Assembly (NCBI GenBank): GCA_034440235.1
Contig: JAWXBR010000017.1
Coordinates: 12,566 to 76,565 of the forward strand
Source of the DNA: a bacterium
GTDB taxonomy: Bacteria; Bacteroidota; Ignavibacteria; Kapaibacteriales; Kapaibacteriaceae
Length of the DNA: 64,000 nt
Direction: 5' to 3'
Part shown: piece by piece, positions 9,077 through 40,895 of the stretch
How positions within the stretch are numbered: the first letter of the stretch is position 1
How the letters are laid out: each line of letters opens with the position of its first letter
The notes under the pieces: model-generated
Told to the model about the DNA's origin: nothing
Databases searched by the model: none
Seen by the model: the letters and a program-made list of their open reading frames with translations, nothing else
Position numbers and translations under genes: made by a program

Positions 9077-9952
9077 TTATTCTACGTTCTGTACTTGTTC
9101 ACGCATGCGTTCGAGCTCTTCCTTCATTCCGACGACAAGGCGGGCTATTTCTGGGTCGTTTGCCTTCGATCCGATGGTGTTTACCTCCCTATTCATTTCC
9201 TGCAGTAGAAAATTCAGCTTACGTCCGACTGCTGTCTCGTCCTGCATGTACTCGCGAAAGAACTTCATGTGACTTCGCAGCCGTACGCACTCTTCCGATA
9301 CGTCAAGTTTTTCTGAAAGCAGAACAATCTCGAGTTGCAGACGATGTTCGTCGACCACGGCATCATCGACAAGCTGGCGCACGCGTTCGCGCAACCGGTT
9401 GCGTTCGAATGGAATACGTTCGGCCGAGCGGACCTCGATGTCAGCCAGGGCAGTGTCTATTGCAAGGATGCGGTTGTCGAAATCTGCGGTAAGCTCAGAG
9501 CCTTCTTTCTCACGCATCTCATTGAGGGAGCGAAGCGCTTCGACGATTGCTGCTTTTAGGTCGGGCCAAGCGTCCGGACGTTCTGCATCTTCTTCTGGTC
9601 GTGCCATGACGGCATCGAACTTCATAAGCGTTTCGATCGTTACGTCGCCTTCGAGGTGTAGCTTGTCTCGCAATACTCGCAGCGACTTTGTGATACGCTC
9701 AGCAGCTTCTGCATTAAACGTCACCTCTTCATTGGCTGCTGCTGCTTCTAAACGAACGTACACAGAAATCGTGCCTCGCGAAACATGCTCGCGCACGGTT
9801 TCACGAACGTTGAGTTCTTTATTCGCAAAGTTTTTCGGAAGTCGTGTTGTGAGTTCCAGATACCGAGCATTTACGCATCGTATCTCTACAGAGCAGGGCA
9901 AACCCTGCAACATCGATTCGCTCTTGCCATACCCCGTCATGCTTCTAATCAT
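9077..9952 (-). CDS. yicC: YicC/YloC family endoribonuclease
   Basis: MIRSMTGYG start, GRKLNFLLQEMNREVNTIGSK, REQVQNVE end; next to gmk. Confidence 0.95.
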   Translation of the reverse strand: MIRSMTGYGKSESMLQGLPCSVEIRCVNARYLELTTRLPKNFANKELNVRETVREHVSRGTISVYVRLEAAAANEEVTFNAEAAERITKSLRVLRDKLHLEGDVTIETLMKFDAVMARPEEDAERPDAWPDLKAAIVEALRSLNEMREKEGSELTADFDNRILAIDTALADIEVRSAERIPFERNRLRERVRQLVDDAVVDEHRLQLEIVLLSEKLDVSEECVRLRSHMKFFREYMQDETAVGRKLNFLLQEMNREVNTIGSKANDPEIARLVVGMKEELERMREQVQNVE

Positions 9953-10030
9953 ATTCTCTGCCTTCTAATCATTTTCTCGACCTTGTAGTCATTTTCTCGG
10001 CCCTGTAGAGATATTCTCGGCCTTGTAGTC
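9942..10030. repeat. imperfect 20-bp tandem repeat (~4.5 copies) over the yicC start
   Basis: cttctaatcatattctctgc / cttctaatcattttctcgac / cttgtagtcattttctcggc / cctgtagagatattctcggc / cttgtagtc. Confidence 0.85.
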
Positions 10031-31470: not shown

Positions 31471-31710
31471 TTAGGCTGCTTTTTTTTTTGCAGCTGTCTT
31501 CTTTGCTGCCTTCTTAGCAGGCTTAGCCTTCTTAGCTGCCTTAGCCTTCTTAGCAGGCTTTGCCTTCTTTGCAGCCTTCTTAGCTGGTGCTGCCTTCTTA
31601 GCTGTAGCCTTCTTAGCTGGTGCTGCCTTCTTAGCCGCCTTCTTGGCTGGCTTCTTGGCTGCCTTCTTAGCTGGCTTAGCCTTTTTCGCTGCCTTTTTCG
31701 CTGCTGCCAT
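31471..31710 (-). CDS. histone H1-like Lys/Ala/Pro-rich protein
   Basis: 79 aa of AKKAA/PAKKA repeats starting at ATG 31710. Confidence 0.8.
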   Translation of the reverse strand: MAAAKKAAKKAKPAKKAAKKPAKKAAKKAAPAKKATAKKAAPAKKAAKKAKPAKKAKAAKKAKPAKKAAKKTAAKKKAA

Positions 31711-35177: not shown

Positions 35178-36719
35178 TCAACGCTGCTGCGCTACCAGCC
35201 TGACAATGAACGTCGTGCCCTTGCCGAGTTCGCTGATGACTTCGATTTCGCCGTCGTGGGCATCGACGATCCACTTGACGATAGCAAGGCCGAGGCCGGT
35301 GCCGTATACTTCTTTCGAGCGTGCTTTGTCGACCTGGTAGAATCGGTCGAAGATGAAGGGCAACTCATTTTCCGGAATGCCAATGCCCGTGTCGCTGACG
35401 GTTAACACTGCCTTGCCGTCGACGTATTCGAGTCCGACATGTACATCGCCACCCTCACGCGTATACTTCACGGCGTTTTCGATAATGTTTAGCAGCGCTT
35501 GTTGAATGTGAATCTTGTCGGCCATGACAAGTATGCCGGGCTGAATGTCGTAGTGAAGTTCGATGCGTTTTTTGTCGGCGAGAATCATGACGTCGTCGCA
35601 TACGTTTTCGACCATGGTGCTGTAGCGCACTTCTTCGCGCAAGAGAGTAACCTGACCCGAATCGGCGCGCGATAGTTCTAGCAGACCTTGCACGACCTGG
35701 TTCAATCGTTCAACTTCTTCGAGACAACTCACGAGCACCTTGTGTGCTTCTTCTGCTGTTAGGGGTCTGCGTAGTGCAAGCTCTAACTCCCCCATCATGA
35801 TGGCAAGGGGCGTACGCAGTTCGTGTGATGCATCGGATGTGAATTGCCGCACTTGCGCGAACGATGTTTCGAGACGCGCAATCATATCGTTGACGGTTTC
35901 TGTAAGGCGTCCGAGTTCGTCGTCCGTGCCCTGCTTCGGTAATCGAAGCGAAAGATTTTGTGCTGTGATCTGTCGGGCGGAGGATGTGATTTCGTCGACT
36001 GGACGCAGTGATCGTTTTGCTAAAAACCATCCCGATAACAACGACACCAGAAGTGCGGCTGGCATAGACCATAACATCACAGAGAAGAGTCCGCGTAACG
36101 TGCTGTCGAGTTCACTAGCTGGATATGCAGCAACCACTTCGACTTCGGTGCCGCGCAGAAGGACGATTCTGTAACGCTGACCTCGCAATGTGTAATACGT
36201 ATAGATGCGATTGTCGATTACCTGCGCACCCTGACGTTCGAAGTATGTAAAGCCCGGCAATGCCGTGTCGGCCTTCATTGCAGAATCGGTGAGCATGTTG
36301 TTCGATTTCCAAGCAATGCGGCTCGAACCATCACGAATCTGAAAAAGGAAGTTCGATGAGTTCAGTAGCATATGTTCGTACACGGCCGACCACACTGGGT
36401 CTTCCTCTACCTCTTCGCCAGCAATAGGCAGAATGGGTCCGACGAAGCGCGTCGACTCGCGGTTCAGGAATTCGAAGGCGTTCTTGGTGGCAACGGGACG
36501 TCGCTCGCGGCGGGCGGGAACGAGTGGACGTTTGGCTTGTTTGCGCTGCTGACGAATGACGGCTTCGAGCGAGGTGGCAGCACGCGACAGCGAGGCATCG
36601 AGGTTCTGGTACAACTCGGCCTGCACTGTTATATAGGTTGCCACAGCAAAGGCAAGGATGATGAGCACGACAAGCGTGCTGTACATAAGAGTGAGTCGCG
36701 CGCGAAGAGACAAGGGCAT
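35178..36719 (-). CDS. HAMP-domain sensor histidine kinase
   Basis: Two TM segments, HAMP, ASHELRTPL, ENAVKY, DTGIGI, GTGLGL. Confidence 0.93.
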   Translation of the reverse strand: MPLSLRARLTLMYSTLVVLIILAFAVATYITVQAELYQNLDASLSRAATSLEAVIRQQRKQAKRPLVPARRERRPVATKNAFEFLNRESTRFVGPILPIAGEEVEEDPVWSAVYEHMLLNSSNFLFQIRDGSSRIAWKSNNMLTDSAMKADTALPGFTYFERQGAQVIDNRIYTYYTLRGQRYRIVLLRGTEVEVVAAYPASELDSTLRGLFSVMLWSMPAALLVSLLSGWFLAKRSLRPVDEITSSARQITAQNLSLRLPKQGTDDELGRLTETVNDMIARLETSFAQVRQFTSDASHELRTPLAIMMGELELALRRPLTAEEAHKVLVSCLEEVERLNQVVQGLLELSRADSGQVTLLREEVRYSTMVENVCDDVMILADKKRIELHYDIQPGILVMADKIHIQQALLNIIENAVKYTREGGDVHVGLEYVDGKAVLTVSDTGIGIPENELPFIFDRFYQVDKARSKEVYGTGLGLAIVKWIVDAHDGEIEVISELGKGTTFIVRLVAQQR

Positions 36720-36747
36720 TCGTGAAAATAGCCCTGTATATTTGATA

Positions 36748-37707
36748 ATGGTAGCGACCGAAATGAAAATTGACAAACGACCCATCGGGGTGTTCGATTC
36801 GGGAATAGGCGGACTTAGCGTCCTGAAGCACGTTGTGCAGAAGCTTCCGGGTGAGCGATTTATCTATCTGGGCGACACCGCACGTGTGCCCTATGGCAAC
36901 CGTTCGGTCGATACAGTCAAGCTCTATTCACGTCAGTGTGCAGCCTTCCTCGAGCAGCACGACGTAAAAATGATTGTTGTTGCGTGCAACACGTCATCGG
37001 CAGTTGCTCTAGACGAATTGCGCGCACATTGTCACGTTCCCGTTCTTGGCGTAATCGAACCTGCGGCAGCAGAGGCTGTGCGCAGAACCCGCAACGGACA
37101 TATCGGCGTGGTGGGCACACGTGCGACGATTGCATCGAACGCATACGCCACATCTATTATGCACGCCGCTACTGCAGCTAGTGTTGCAGTTAACACGGCT
37201 ACGGGTGTTGCCAGCGGCAAAGCCGCAGGCACGAACAACGTGTTCGTGCATAGTCAGCCTTGCCCCCTGTTTGTGCCCCTTGTCGAAGAAGGCTGGCTCG
37301 ACACGCCTGCTACACGACTGATTGCTGAGGAGTATCTTCGTCCGCTCGTAGCAAACAAGATTGACACGTTGGTGCTTGGGTGTACACATTATCCGCTGCT
37401 GTCGCCGATGCTTCGCAGTATGTTGCCGGATGTTGTGCTTATCGATTGCGGTGCAAGTGTTGCCCTAGAGGCGCAGGCACTAAATAATGCTCAAGAGAAA
37501 AATGCTCAAGAAAATTCGGATGAAAACACATTAGCACATGAAAACGCAGCAGCACATGTAGTTTCAGCGACGCCAAAAGCCCCTTCACAAACGTATTTCT
37601 ATCTGACGGATAACACGCCCCAGTTTCAGCTCATAGCGCAACAGTTTTTAGGCACAACGGTGAATGAACCTGTGCGCGTAAGTGTTGACCATTTGATTGG
37701 AGTATAA
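36748..37707 (+). CDS. murI: glutamate racemase
   Basis: FDSGIGG, PYG, ACNT, GCTHYP. Confidence 0.96.
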   Translation: MVATEMKIDKRPIGVFDSGIGGLSVLKHVVQKLPGERFIYLGDTARVPYGNRSVDTVKLYSRQCAAFLEQHDVKMIVVACNTSSAVALDELRAHCHVPVLGVIEPAAAEAVRRTRNGHIGVVGTRATIASNAYATSIMHAATAASVAVNTATGVASGKAAGTNNVFVHSQPCPLFVPLVEEGWLDTPATRLIAEEYLRPLVANKIDTLVLGCTHYPLLSPMLRSMLPDVVLIDCGASVALEAQALNNAQEKNAQENSDENTLAHENAAAHVVSATPKAPSQTYFYLTDNTPQFQLIAQQFLGTTVNEPVRVSVDHLIGV

Positions 37708-37709
37708 CC

Positions 37710-38630
37710 ATGGTTACGTATCTCTTGCGGAAGGTGCTCTATGCGATACTCGTCCTCGTGGGCGTTATTGCAGTCACGTTCTTTATACGTCCGCCCGGCG
37801 ACCCGGCACGCGTACTGCTCGGACAGCGTGCAGATGAGCAGAGCATACGCGCACTGCGCGAGCAACTCGGACTCGATAAACCTCTGCCCGTGCAGATGGG
37901 ATACTACATGGTGAATCTGGTGCAGGGCGACATGGGACGTAGCATTGCCACAGGCCGATCGGTTACCGAAACAATCATGGAACGTTTGCCTGCTACGGCA
38001 TTGCTTGCATGTACATCGATGGCAATTGCAACGCTGTTAGGGATTGTACTCGGACTCGTTGCTGCATATAAACCGAACTCTTGGACAGATTCGCTAACGA
38101 TGTCCGTATCACTTCTCGGAATTTCATTGCCAGCATTTGTTGTTGGTCTGTTGCTCGTGTTGCTCTTCGGCGTGGTGCTCGAGTGGTTTCCCAATAGCGG
38201 TTACGTCGATCGAGGTGCAGAATATTTAGTGCTGCCGATGATCACACTTGCAATACGTCCGATGGCCATCATCGCACGTGTTACGCGCTCGAGTATGCTC
38301 GACGTGTTGGGTCAGGACTACGTCCGTACCGCCCGCGCCAAAGGCCTCAACAACTTCTCTGTCTACACAAAACACGCTCTTCGCAATGCGCTTAACCCTG
38401 TTGTTACAACGGTGAGTGCATGGTTCGCAGGATTGCTTGCTGGTACGTACTTCATCGAATACATTTTTAGTTGGCCCGGCGTCGGACTCACCGCGTTTAA
38501 TGCAATCGAAAAACTCGACTTCCCCGTTATTCAAGGCACTGTTCTCTTAACCGCAATTGTATTTGTTGTTGTGAACGTGTTCGCCGATCTTCTGTATGCC
38601 TACATCGACCCGAAGGTCCGTCTTAACTAA
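37710..38630 (+). CDS. dppB: peptide ABC transporter permease (DppB/OppB)
   Basis: PGDP, GLDKP, DYVRTARAKG, DLLYAYIDP. Confidence 0.9.
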   Translation: MVTYLLRKVLYAILVLVGVIAVTFFIRPPGDPARVLLGQRADEQSIRALREQLGLDKPLPVQMGYYMVNLVQGDMGRSIATGRSVTETIMERLPATALLACTSMAIATLLGIVLGLVAAYKPNSWTDSLTMSVSLLGISLPAFVVGLLLVLLFGVVLEWFPNSGYVDRGAEYLVLPMITLAIRPMAIIARVTRSSMLDVLGQDYVRTARAKGLNNFSVYTKHALRNALNPVVTTVSAWFAGLLAGTYFIEYIFSWPGVGLTAFNAIEKLDFPVIQGTVLLTAIVFVVVNVFADLLYAYIDPKVRLN

Positions 38631-38637
38631 TGAATCC

Positions 38638-38753
38638 CATGACCAACTTTGTTAAGGGGCCGCAAGCATGAGCAACTTTGTTAAGGGGCCGCAAGCATGA
38701 GCAACTCTGGTAAGGGGCAAGAAGCATGAGCAACTCTGGTAAGGGGCAAGAAG
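38638..38753 (+). repeat. four 29-bp tandem repeats over the dppC start
   Basis: catga(c/g)caactttgttaaggggccgcaag x2, then catgagcaactctggtaaggggcaagaag x2. Confidence 0.92.
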
Positions 38754-39787
38754 GGGGCGAAAGCCTTTGGTACGTTGCGTGGCGCAGACTTCGCAAAAAT
38801 CCGGGTGCAATCTTCGGCATGACGGTGCTTGCAATTATGATTGTGATGGCGGTGGCTGCACCAATCATTACTCCGTTCGACCCAACAACGCAGATTCTCG
38901 AATACGCAGTAAAGCCTGCTGGTTTTAGGGGTAACGTGTTATTAAAGAAGAATCCATCGGATGTAGATCAGCCTTCGATTGTTGCGGTGTCTACGTGGGA
39001 GCAACGTGGTGATACGGTGTTCTACACCGACCCAGCAGGTCAGCCGTACAAGGTTGCTGTGTCGGCGTTGCAAGGCACAAGCGCAAGCGACTGGCATGAA
39101 GAGCCGCTGTTTCTGTTGGGCACCGATCGGTTCGGACGCGACATGTTTAGTCGGCTCGTGTACGGTATGCGCGTATCGTTAAGTGTTGGTCTTATCGCAG
39201 AATCGATTGCGTTGTCGATTGGCATTCTGCTCGGCTCGTTGGCGGGCTTCTATAGAGGATGGATAGACGACGTTATCATGTGGCTTGTAAATGTTGTGTG
39301 GTCGTTCCCGACAATTCTTCTCGTCATTGCATTCAGCGTCATCCTCGGCAAAGGTTATTGGCAAACGTTTGTTGCCATTGGATTATCGTCGTGGGTAGAC
39401 ATTGCACGTATCGTGCGAGGTCAGTTCTTCTCTATCCGCGAACAGGAATACGTCGAAGCAACACGAGCGTTGGGTTTCGGTTCGATGCGTACGATTTTTA
39501 GGCACATGCTTCCGAATGCCGCCGGACCAATTATTGTGTTATCGACGGCTGGGTTTGCAACGGCCATTATTGCCGAAGCATCACTTTCGTTCATAGGCCT
39601 TGGCGTTCAGCCCCCTACCCCATCATGGGGTCAGATGATTAAAGACGGTTACGGCTACATCGCTCTAGGTACTAATTGGGGAATGACAGTCTTCCCGAGT
39701 ATCGCCATGGCGCTTGCGGTGTTGTCGCTGAATTTGTTTGGTGACGGACTTCGCGACGCACTCGACCCGAAGACAACACAGCGATGA
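38726..39787 (+). CDS. dppC: peptide ABC transporter permease (DppC/OppC)
   Basis: LGTDRFGRD, EYVEATRALG, PPTPSWG, GDGLRDALDP. Confidence 0.9.
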   Translation: MSNSGKGQEGGESLWYVAWRRLRKNPGAIFGMTVLAIMIVMAVAAPIITPFDPTTQILEYAVKPAGFRGNVLLKKNPSDVDQPSIVAVSTWEQRGDTVFYTDPAGQPYKVAVSALQGTSASDWHEEPLFLLGTDRFGRDMFSRLVYGMRVSLSVGLIAESIALSIGILLGSLAGFYRGWIDDVIMWLVNVVWSFPTILLVIAFSVILGKGYWQTFVAIGLSSWVDIARIVRGQFFSIREQEYVEATRALGFGSMRTIFRHMLPNAAGPIIVLSTAGFATAIIAEASLSFIGLGVQPPTPSWGQMIKDGYGYIALGTNWGMTVFPSIAMALAVLSLNLFGDGLRDALDPKTTQR

Positions 39788-39833
39788 GTACGGCTAATCA
39801 GTCATCATACCAGTCAACACTATCGACGCAACG

Positions 39834-40895
39834 ATGATTGATGCGATGATTAAATCTGGTGTCTATCCGCCAGTGCTTTTGTTGTTTGGTGAAGAGGAAT
39901 TACTCGTCGACGAAGCAGCGCGCAACATCTATGCTGCGGCAACTGCTGATGACTTGAGCGGCATGAATAACGACGCTCTCGAAGGCGAAGGTATGTCGCT
40001 CGACGCCATTCTCATGATCGCACGCTCGTTCCCGATGATGGGCGACCGTCGTGTGGTGTGGGTGCGTCGGTTCGATAAAGTCATAGGAGCAAAAGATAAA
40101 AAAGGCAACGATCTTATGGCGGCGTATATGAAGTCGCCGTCCGAGTCGACGTTTCTATTGCTTACGGCGTCGCTGTCGAGCATTGACGGACTCCAGGCAT
40201 CGATGCAAAAAAGTGCAGCAACAGCACAACGTAAAATCGCTGCACAAAAGCCTCCGATCGGAGCATTGTTAAAGAGTGCGAAGTGGCACGAGTTTCCTCG
40301 CATGCGCGAAGCGCAAGTGCGTACGTGGGTACGGGCGCGGGGGACTGCAATCGGACTCGCCATTGACGATGGCGCAATCGATTTTCTTTTGCTGCGATGT
40401 GGCACGCAACTGCGCGACCTTGCGCTCGAGCTCGACAAGCTCAAGACGTATGTTGGCGATCGCACTGCAGCAACACTCGACGACATTAATGCGATTGTTG
40501 GTGCGGGCAAGACGTACAACATCTTCGAACTGCAACGTGCAATCGGACGTGCCGATGTATCGAATGCGTACACCATCCTCACGCGCATGATGGAAGCCGA
40601 GCGTCAGGAAATGCTCATCATCGCAATGCTCACGCGCTACTTCCTCGCACTCTTCAAGCTCACCGACCTGCGAGGTTCTACCGACCGCGCAGACGTTGCA
40701 AAGCGCGCAGGCATCCCCATGTTTGCCGTCGGAGATCACATGGAAGCACTCGACCGACTTGGCGCGGCGCGTGTCGAACGCGCCCTTATGCTGCTTGTTA
40801 AAGCCGACGCAACTATCAAGTCGTCTTCGTCCGACGCACTCACCGTACTTCAGACGGCCCTATCGCAAATCCTCGAACCCGTCACCGCTCGATAG
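39834..40895 (+). CDS. holA: DNA polymerase III subunit delta
   Basis: LLFGEEELL, FPMMGDRRVV, ELDKL, YNIFEL. Confidence 0.9.
   Translation: MIDAMIKSGVYPPVLLLFGEEELLVDEAARNIYAAATADDLSGMNNDALEGEGMSLDAILMIARSFPMMGDRRVVWVRRFDKVIGAKDKKGNDLMAAYMKSPSESTFLLLTASLSSIDGLQASMQKSAATAQRKIAAQKPPIGALLKSAKWHEFPRMREAQVRTWVRARGTAIGLAIDDGAIDFLLLRCGTQLRDLALELDKLKTYVGDRTAATLDDINAIVGAGKTYNIFELQRAIGRADVSNAYTILTRMMEAERQEMLIIAMLTRYFLALFKLTDLRGSTDRADVAKRAGIPMFAVGDHMEALDRLGAARVERALMLLVKADATIKSSSSDALTVLQTALSQILEPVTAR

Follow-up and report, generated by a model that had tools for sequence, protein, structure and literature searches.

A 29-bp tandem array over the dppC translation start in a Kapaibacteriota-like genome: a probable lineage-specific minisatellite that preserves stop/start overlaps

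In the 64,000-nt stretch of DNA analysed here (hereafter the window), which lies on contig C17 of a Kapaibacteriota-like metagenome-assembled genome (MAG; G000, 3.04 Mb in 71 contigs), the genes of a dppB-like and a dppC-like ATP-binding cassette (ABC) permease are joined by a 29-bp tandem array, which repeats the dppC translation start and forms a chain of three short open reading frames (micro-ORFs) linked by stop/start overlaps. This array is probably a lineage-specific minisatellite, i.e. a tolerated duplication of the start region that preserved the geometry of translational coupling and would be near-neutral for the host. A preliminary description, made from the sequence alone, had read the chain as a termination-reinitiation relay from dppB to dppC, the copy number of which could tune the DppB:DppC ratio.

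Anatomy and history of the dppB/dppC junction

The junction comprises the following features (window coordinates):

37710-38630, + strand: dppB-like ABC permease gene, 306 aa, of the Opp/Dpp/Nik/Gsi 'B' type (ORF list and NCBIfam)
38628-38632, + strand: TAATG, where the dppB stop and the ATG that heads the chain share 1 nt, the final A of TAA being the A of ATG 38630-38632
38630-38671, + strand: micro-ORF 1, MNPMTNFVKGPQA and stop, with an in-frame ATG at 38639; its TGA (38669-38671) overlaps ATG 38668
38638-38747, + strand: 29-bp tandem array of pattern A A' B B (Tandem Repeats Finder, TRF: period 29, 3.8 copies, 92% matches, score 164)
38654-38659, 38683-38688 and 38712-38717, + strand: AAGGGG, resembling a Shine-Dalgarno (SD) site, each 8 nt before the next ATG (38668, 38697, 38726)
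38668-38700, + strand: micro-ORF 2, MSNFVKGPQA and stop, with an ATGA overlap at either end; its TGA overlaps ATG 38697
38697-38729, + strand: micro-ORF 3, MSNSGKGQEA and stop; its TGA overlaps the dppC ATG 38726
38726-39787, + strand: dppC-like ABC permease gene, 353 aa (ORF list and NCBIfam)

The dppB-like ORF ends in ...CTT AAC TAA with its stop at 38628-38630, and the 95-nt gap between this stop and the dppC start is crossed by one -1 overlap followed by three -4 overlaps (ATGA at 38668, 38697 and 38726). What the preliminary description had said of the TAATG overlap and of the three ATGA-chained micro-ORFs leading up to dppC proved correct in every sequence statement, coordinates and translations alike, as did the placing of AAGGGG 8 nt ahead of the next ATG for the last three ATGs. 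The motif was not found ahead of ATG 38630 or ATG 38639, and a fourth copy (38741-38746) forms the codons K-G within dppC. Among the ATGs of the array only ATG 38726 opens the full-length DppC-like protein, the N-terminal peptide of which reads MSNSGKGQEGGESLW.... The 29-bp unit (2 mod 3) does renew the ATGA in each copy, as had been noted, though this is automatic: with a start of ATGA and units of 29 nt, each TGA falls in frame 30 nt past the preceding ATG (offset 30), so that extra copies automatically become stop-start ORFs. The ATGA chain is hence the arithmetic outcome of any tandem unit of 3n+2 nt that contains ATGA, and no independent coincidence.

With a TRF score of 164 and 92% matches the repeat pattern is not due to chance, and TRF resolves it into head-to-tail copies of one unit, as expected of a minisatellite or variable-number tandem repeat (VNTR). 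Alignment with relatives identifies the unit as the opening 28 nt of dppC together with the 1 nt ahead of them. Between type A (copies 1 and 2) and type B (copies 3 and 4) there are 5 differences in 29 positions; within type A one site distinguishes the two copies, and over 28 nt no difference separates copies 3 and 4. All four copies have AAC where the relatives have AAG, i.e. they share one derived change; type A retains the ancestral GTT and type B has GGT. Because of this A/B divergence, the shared derived change and the identity of copies 3 and 4, the first duplication appears to be old and followed by later re-duplications. The simplest history would thus be one old duplication, divergence, and a separate re-duplication of each copy, which amounts to at least three apparent duplication events in the same register and makes the array look old rather than a fleeting mutation.

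In G001, the sole same-genus genome in the comparison set, the junction is single-copy and reads ...CTTAAC TAA GGAAACCC ATGAGCAAGACTGTTAAGGGGCACGAAGGGGGCGAAAGC; in two microbial-mat metagenome contigs of a third lineage it is TAA GGAACTCT ATGAGCAAGTCTGTTAAGGGGCAAGAAGGGGGC, likewise with a single copy. The array was therefore not found in any of these close relatives (3/3 examined). The DppC-like protein shares 93% amino-acid identity with its same-genus ortholog over residues 1-353; across the family its N-terminal stretch is variable. ATG 38639 occupies the ancestral dppC start position, 8 nt after TAA as in the relatives. Window 38628-38638 reads TAATGAAT where the relatives have the SD-like TAAGGAA(A/C), and a single G-to-T change accounts both for the loss of the ancestral SD and for the gain of the TAATG overlap with which the chain begins. 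In most of 28 family/order loci (30 were fetched, two of which were left out as they lacked one of the genes) the dppB stop and dppC start overlap directly as ...NNA TGA, which suggests classic ATGA coupling as the family-level ancestral state. Within the genus this overlap appears to have become TAA, an 8-nt spacer and ATG, with TAAGGAA as SD-like site, and the lineage of the window would then have repeated the start.

Logan contigs from four microbial-mat runs (X1-X4, possibly of one sampling campaign and one of them possibly the source sample) tile the array with 0 differences. RNA runs do not figure among the 13 runs listed as holders. In the tiling, X1 contigs span 38648-38702 and 38677-38722, and contigs over 38695-38751 (or 38693-38751, 38695-38753) occur in all four runs; contig coverage is absent at ~38597-38695 in X3 and at 38759-39001 in X4. 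In X2 and X4 one contig each carries two other letters beside or inside the first copies, with the array still present, and no contig in X1-X4 joins across fewer copies. The A/A, A/B and B/B junction words are present in independently built contigs, at an X1 depth of 7-12 vs ~14.5 in the flanks. The tandem junctions are real DNA. That strain variants of a single-copy start were strung together during assembly would suit a source MAG in 71 contigs, in which several arrays stand at contig ends, but it is a very improbable explanation in view of the independent, difference-free contigs of four runs, their flank-like depths and the lack of any copy-skipping join among them. Variation in copy number, named as a check in the preliminary description, is found between species (four copies vs one) but not within the contigs of the four runs, where rare variants are lost from the contigs and the number of identical B copies is beyond the reach of 31-mers.

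Here dppB and dppC serve as family-level labels for a predicted peptide/nickel-type ABC permease pair. The best NCBIfam matches of the dppB-like protein are Opp2B (297 bits, cut-off 350) and GsiC (277 bits), all below the equivalog cut-offs, and that of the dppC-like protein is Opp4C (301 vs a cut-off of 350), again below it; the DppB and DppC equivalogs NF008161 and NF008160 score 217 vs a cut-off of 590 and 216 vs 483, i.e. outside membership. The pair (window 36658-39834) lies between a glutamate-racemase-like ORF (349 aa, with a 2-nt spacer to dppB) and holA, and neither a binding-protein gene nor an ATPase gene adjoins it.

Tandem arrays and start-codon repeats across the genome

At a TRF score of at least 50 the genome holds 426 non-overlapping arrays; keeping periods of 10-60 and dropping the CRISPR array at C22:1-4000 leaves 409, or 134/Mb. 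The same procedure gave 21 arrays in 264 kb of G001 (79.5/Mb) and, for G010 and G007, 8 per 200-kb sample (40/Mb each), so that the density is 1.7-3.4x that of the sampled relatives. By period, 260 of the 409 arrays are 0 mod 3, 60 are 1 mod 3 and 89 are 2 mod 3; the 149 non-multiples of 3 have few counterparts in the relatives (4/21 in G001, 0/8 in G010, 1/8 in G007). Measured against a crude gene call of 2382 ORFs (92% coding, ~8% intergenic), the array midpoint is intergenic in 185/409 cases, and 95 of these 185 arrays end between -30 and +30 nt from the downstream gene start; among intragenic arrays, 72 lie within the first 120 nt vs 23 expected. Part of this concentration in intergenic sequence and at gene starts is expected from purifying selection alone in a compact genome. 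The window itself holds 12 TRF arrays in all, one of which is a 30-bp x 6.8 array with 74% matches at 31498-31703 (G000:C17:44063-44268).

With up to 6 mismatches allowed, the dppC unit occurs at no other locus of the genome, and only 9 pairs of the 409 arrays have a unit in common, mostly at contig ends; the arrays are therefore best seen as local duplications and not as a mobile element, a reading that we rejected for the dppC array as its unit is unique to the locus. Nor is there support for attributing the repeat load to lost repair genes: mutS, mutL and recJ are present with open frames.

Scanning the genome for ATGA-linked micro-ORFs of up to 25 codons gave 17, 4, 1 and 1 chains with 3, 4, 6 and 7 links, respectively; block shuffles gave ~8 three-link chains per genome (24 in 3 shuffles). 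Repeats account for 16 of the 23 rows with at least 3 links (7 in the CRISPR array, 9 in tandem arrays) and non-repeat sequence for 7. Several of the 23 rows are the same array, the 9 tandem-array rows coming from 29-bp arrays (two loci, one array each) and from arrays of 14, 16 and 20 bp, and the chains from the CRISPR array (G000:C22:1-4000, 36-nt repeat GCTTCAATGGGGCCATGCTTCTATGAGCATGGAAAT) are spurious.

Start-codon arrays were then collected with two scripts. The first required an upstream in-frame stop inside the array, an ORF of at least 150 codons and a first ATG within one period of the array end; it returned 21 rows, 14 of which repeat the ATG in register (11 at 2 mod 3, 2 at 1 mod 3, 1 at 0 mod 3). 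A less biased script, which admits in-frame N-terminal arrays and drops 0-mod-3 arrays with >40 upstream open codons, returned 27 rows (12, 3 and 12 at 0, 1 and 2 mod 3), one of which is spurious (C62, minus strand, 2 mod 3), being the opposite strand of the fabD array. In all, about 26 arrays repeat the start codon of a gene. ATGA chains ahead of long ORFs were found in six arrays, dppC included, by the first script and in five by the less biased one. The others are as follows:

G000:C62:18699-18827 (L075:700-828): fabH-fabD array, 20 bp x 6.4; the fabH TGA overlaps the first ATG, and six 7-codon frames precede fabD
G000:C49:4131-4243 (L074:732-844): HlyD-ABC array, 29 bp x 3.9; TGATG overlap with a HlyD-like gene, then three 10-codon frames (MKCRVSPDNK and stop) and an ABC ATPase gene
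Window 9949-10030 (G000:C17:22514-22595), - strand: array at a yicC-like gene, 20 bp x 4.1, repeating its ATGA start (MIRSMTGYGK...), with two 7-codon ATGA-linked frames
C60:333-387: further ATGA-chain array
C54:63461-63524: further ATGA-chain array

As far as these sites could be matched they are single-copy in relatives. At the fabD site G001 has TAA, 19 nt and ATG, and G017, G008 and G010 have a direct ATGA overlap; the ABC ATPase site is single-copy in G008, G017 and G010, with no match in G001, and the site of the yicC-like gene is single-copy in G001. Given these parallel start-codon arrays, single-copy in relatives, the dppC array appears to be one instance of a lineage-wide process.

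Translation at the junction and competing explanations

Duplex energies were calculated against the anti-SD CACCUCCUUUC; the 16S 3' end (GGATCACCTCCTTTCT, with the anti-SD CCUCC present) was taken from family members and stands in for the host's own, a 16S gene having been found neither in G000, a motif scan included, nor in G001. The AAGGGG before ATGs 38668, 38697 and 38726 gives -6.5 kcal/mol, which only 12.7% of 2361 crude starts surpass, and the ancestral single-copy site TAAGGAA gives -5.1 kcal/mol; for ATG 38639 in the window the value is +0.4 kcal/mol, TAAGGAA having turned into TAATGAA there. A survey of 2052 first-ATG candidates shows upstream peaks of GGAG at -9 and of AAGG at -14 to -11, and the SD potential of the genome lies slightly over random (median -2.9 vs -2.3 kcal/mol). 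SD sites thus seem to be used by a subset of genes in this organism, and the true dppC start has a good predicted SD of its own, supplied by the duplication. The junction also has the marks of stop/start-overlap coupling, namely co-directional 4-nt and 1-nt overlaps and an SD inside the upstream frame, which is common, though not obligatory, in such pairs.

The RNA fold at the junction is not special (z = 0.52), and neither an Rfam match at E <= 1 nor a terminator was found there; the only further signal is one weak promoter-like site downstream, inside dppC. We therefore rejected a riboswitch or other RNA structure. A regulatory leader peptide or attenuator does not fit either, as the micro-ORFs are absent from relatives and lack any fold, Rfam or terminator signal.

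The following sequence of events would account for these data. At least three successive 29-bp duplications of the dppC translation start would have shifted the start in use downstream by 87 nt from where it lay ancestrally. Each extra copy is automatically a 10-codon ORF with its TGA on the ATG of the next copy, and no decoy frame leads into dppC. The same duplications would set the gene's own codons AAG-GGG 8 nt ahead of the next ATG, where they may serve as a Shine-Dalgarno site. DppC would be made from ATG 38726 both by direct, SD-assisted initiation and by ribosomes passed on from dppB through the TAATG and ATGA overlaps. The net change in DppC output would probably be small, and the array would persist as harmless in a host genome that may generate and retain unusually many short tandem repeats near gene starts.

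Three tests bear on selection for the relay property. ATGA is found in 6/11 start arrays of period 2 mod 3, as compared to a share of 45% among ATG starts overall (p = 0.37); periods of 2 and 1 mod 3 are seen in 11 and 3 start arrays, respectively, vs 78 and 57 of the other arrays (one-sided Fisher p = 0.11); and of the 6 variable sites among the four copies none falls in the 10 ATGA and AAGGGG positions (p = 0.057), which in the last copy are additionally under coding constraint. None of the three is significant and none is decisive. Several points nevertheless weigh against a near-neutral minisatellite. The neutrality of the array is something that we infer; that an old array keeps all three ATGA links and the AAGGGG motifs intact is a weak hint of constraint; the G-to-T change, which made TAATG and removed the ancestral SD, would fit a shift to a relay as well as it fits drift; and the lean of the start arrays towards period 2 mod 3 is compatible with selection for clean stop-start chains.

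These points lead to the alternative closest to the preliminary description, namely a selected chain that is kept to pass dppB ribosomes on to dppC and whose copy number sets the DppB:DppC ratio. In its favour are the order of overlaps (-1, -4, -4, -4), the SD-like motif before each restart and the conservation and TAATG gain just mentioned. Overlaps are, moreover, widely used in this genome (247 at -4 and 89 at -1 among 2382 crude genes, ORFs of at least 90 codons). In tested gene pairs a gap of 20 nt already abolishes coupling (PMC10666635), and with coupling nearly lost at ~20 nt a 95-nt gap would need bridging ORFs for coupling to survive. On the other side stand the absence of the array from all three close relatives, the purely arithmetic renewal of ATGA and the finding that ATGA is no commoner in the 2-mod-3 start arrays than among all ATG starts. 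Since SD and ATG are the same in every unit, ribosomes could just as plausibly initiate directly on the last copy as arrive by relay, and flux may well be independent of copy number. A simple recursion with equal d per unit, F(k) = d + r x F(k-1), suggests that output converges on d/(1-r) and that the dppB flux is forgotten, so that more copies would uncouple dppC from dppB instead of tuning their ratio. We regard a selected relay or tuner as unlikely. Of the preliminary description, a termination-reinitiation relay through the micro-ORFs stays plausible on account of the overlap anatomy and the well-placed SD-like motif, whereas a relay evolved as such is not borne out, and copy-number tuning and a purpose-built design are unsupported, with no variant in the contigs of four runs and uncoupling as the predicted effect.

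Slightly more doubtful is a decoy role of the upstream SD and ATG copies. They would catch ribosomes, some of which would be lost at imperfect restarts, and DppC synthesis would be lowered or made independent of dppB translation, an outcome that may be mildly harmful or may have been selected. The three decoy starts do match the true one in SD and spacing, and reinitiation efficiency in tested pairs varies widely and depends on the SD (PMC6728339). Against strong attenuation as a general consequence of such chains speaks the fabH-fabD array, and a 1:1 ratio is expected for two permease subunits. FabD is normally required for fatty-acid synthesis. Here, fabD has a sole genome copy (one tblastn match, E <= 1e-5) and stands behind six links with no SD-like run in the array unit; six SD-free links thus appear compatible with the expression of a single-copy gene. 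Functional peptides encoded by the micro-ORFs are exceedingly improbable: the frames are open and have good start contexts, but they are fragments of the DppC N-terminus, a stretch that is variable across the family, and are absent from relatives. The minisatellite origin set out above is hence the explanation that we prefer.

Known systems and implications

Reporter work has found tight coupling at -4 and -1 stop/start overlaps (Huber et al. 2019, PMC6728339; Huber et al. 2023, PMC10666635) and termination-reinitiation nearly abolished by a ~20-nt gap (PMC10666635). The dppB/dppC junction resembles those pairs in the geometry of all four links and in the SD-like motif within the upstream frame, and its genes would encode two subunits of one heteromeric transporter, a class of gene pair enriched in overlaps. 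It differs in that the overlaps here join throw-away, repeat-made frames of 10-13 codons and not two real genes. A literature search returned no measurement of four serial restarts.

Mycobacterial interspersed repetitive units (MIRUs) are short units, often in tandem, at start codons in operons, carrying an ORF whose coupling at -4 nt is to the gene that follows, the expression of which is thought to be little disturbed (PMC12548453, PMC3184786). They are described as dispersed and apparently mobile, 40-100 bp long and present in ~40-50 genomic copies (Supply et al. 1997, as summarised in PMC3184786 and PMC12548453). The dppC array shares with them the position at a start codon and the -4-nt coupled ORF. 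Its unit, however, is 29 bp, occurs at one locus only and copies the gene's own 5' end, and it is found in a Kapaibacteriota-like MAG instead of Mycobacterium; judged by dispersal, host and unit size, the dppC array is not a MIRU. With bacterial minisatellites or VNTRs, which arise by slipped-strand tandem duplication, it has in common the head-to-tail copies, the stepwise pattern A A' B B and the interspecies difference in copy number. In contrast to them, no copy-number variation within the species was seen in the contigs of the four runs, and a period that is no multiple of 3 spans the start codon with the gene unbroken. A review (PMC12548453) treats short ORFs which, from an upstream position, 'deliver' ribosomes to the gene coupled to them; the likeness is a non-functional short ORF stopping on the start of the real gene, and the difference is that dppC has three such ORFs in series, non-conserved and a by-product of duplication. 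Taken together, these comparisons favour filing the array as a junction-spanning minisatellite whose coupling geometry happens to be preserved. Outside MIRUs, a literature search that excluded supplements found no case of a local start-region duplication giving serial ATGA mini-ORFs, and among the titles and abstract openings listed by a search on Kapabacteria none mentions repeats.

On a wider reading, which we consider quite unlikely, lineage-wide expandable start-codon minisatellites would be an evolvable setting of translation, operon-internal genes included. If so, the dppB-dppC, fabH-fabD and HlyD-ABC chains, all combining a 3n+2 unit with ATGA, would be adjustable coupling attenuators or insulators, and serial reinitiation would have to be very processive for the only fabD, which stands behind six links free of SD.

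In conclusion, the dppC locus alone is a neat but ordinary structural mutation, and its interest is modest; that of the genome-wide set of start-codon arrays is somewhat higher. The locus illustrates that a tandem duplication over a start codon can be harmless given a 3n+2 unit and an ATGA start. The genome as a whole may be regarded as offering natural constructs in which 1 to 6 stop-start restarts follow in series, with an SD (dppC) or without (fabD); behind them stand dppC, for a transporter subunit, a gene for an ABC ATPase and the one fabD copy. With these constructs the serial-restart processivity of termination-reinitiation could be approached beyond the published pairwise assays. Moreover, a free-living mat bacterium can evidently carry ~134 minisatellites/Mb, concentrated at gene starts.

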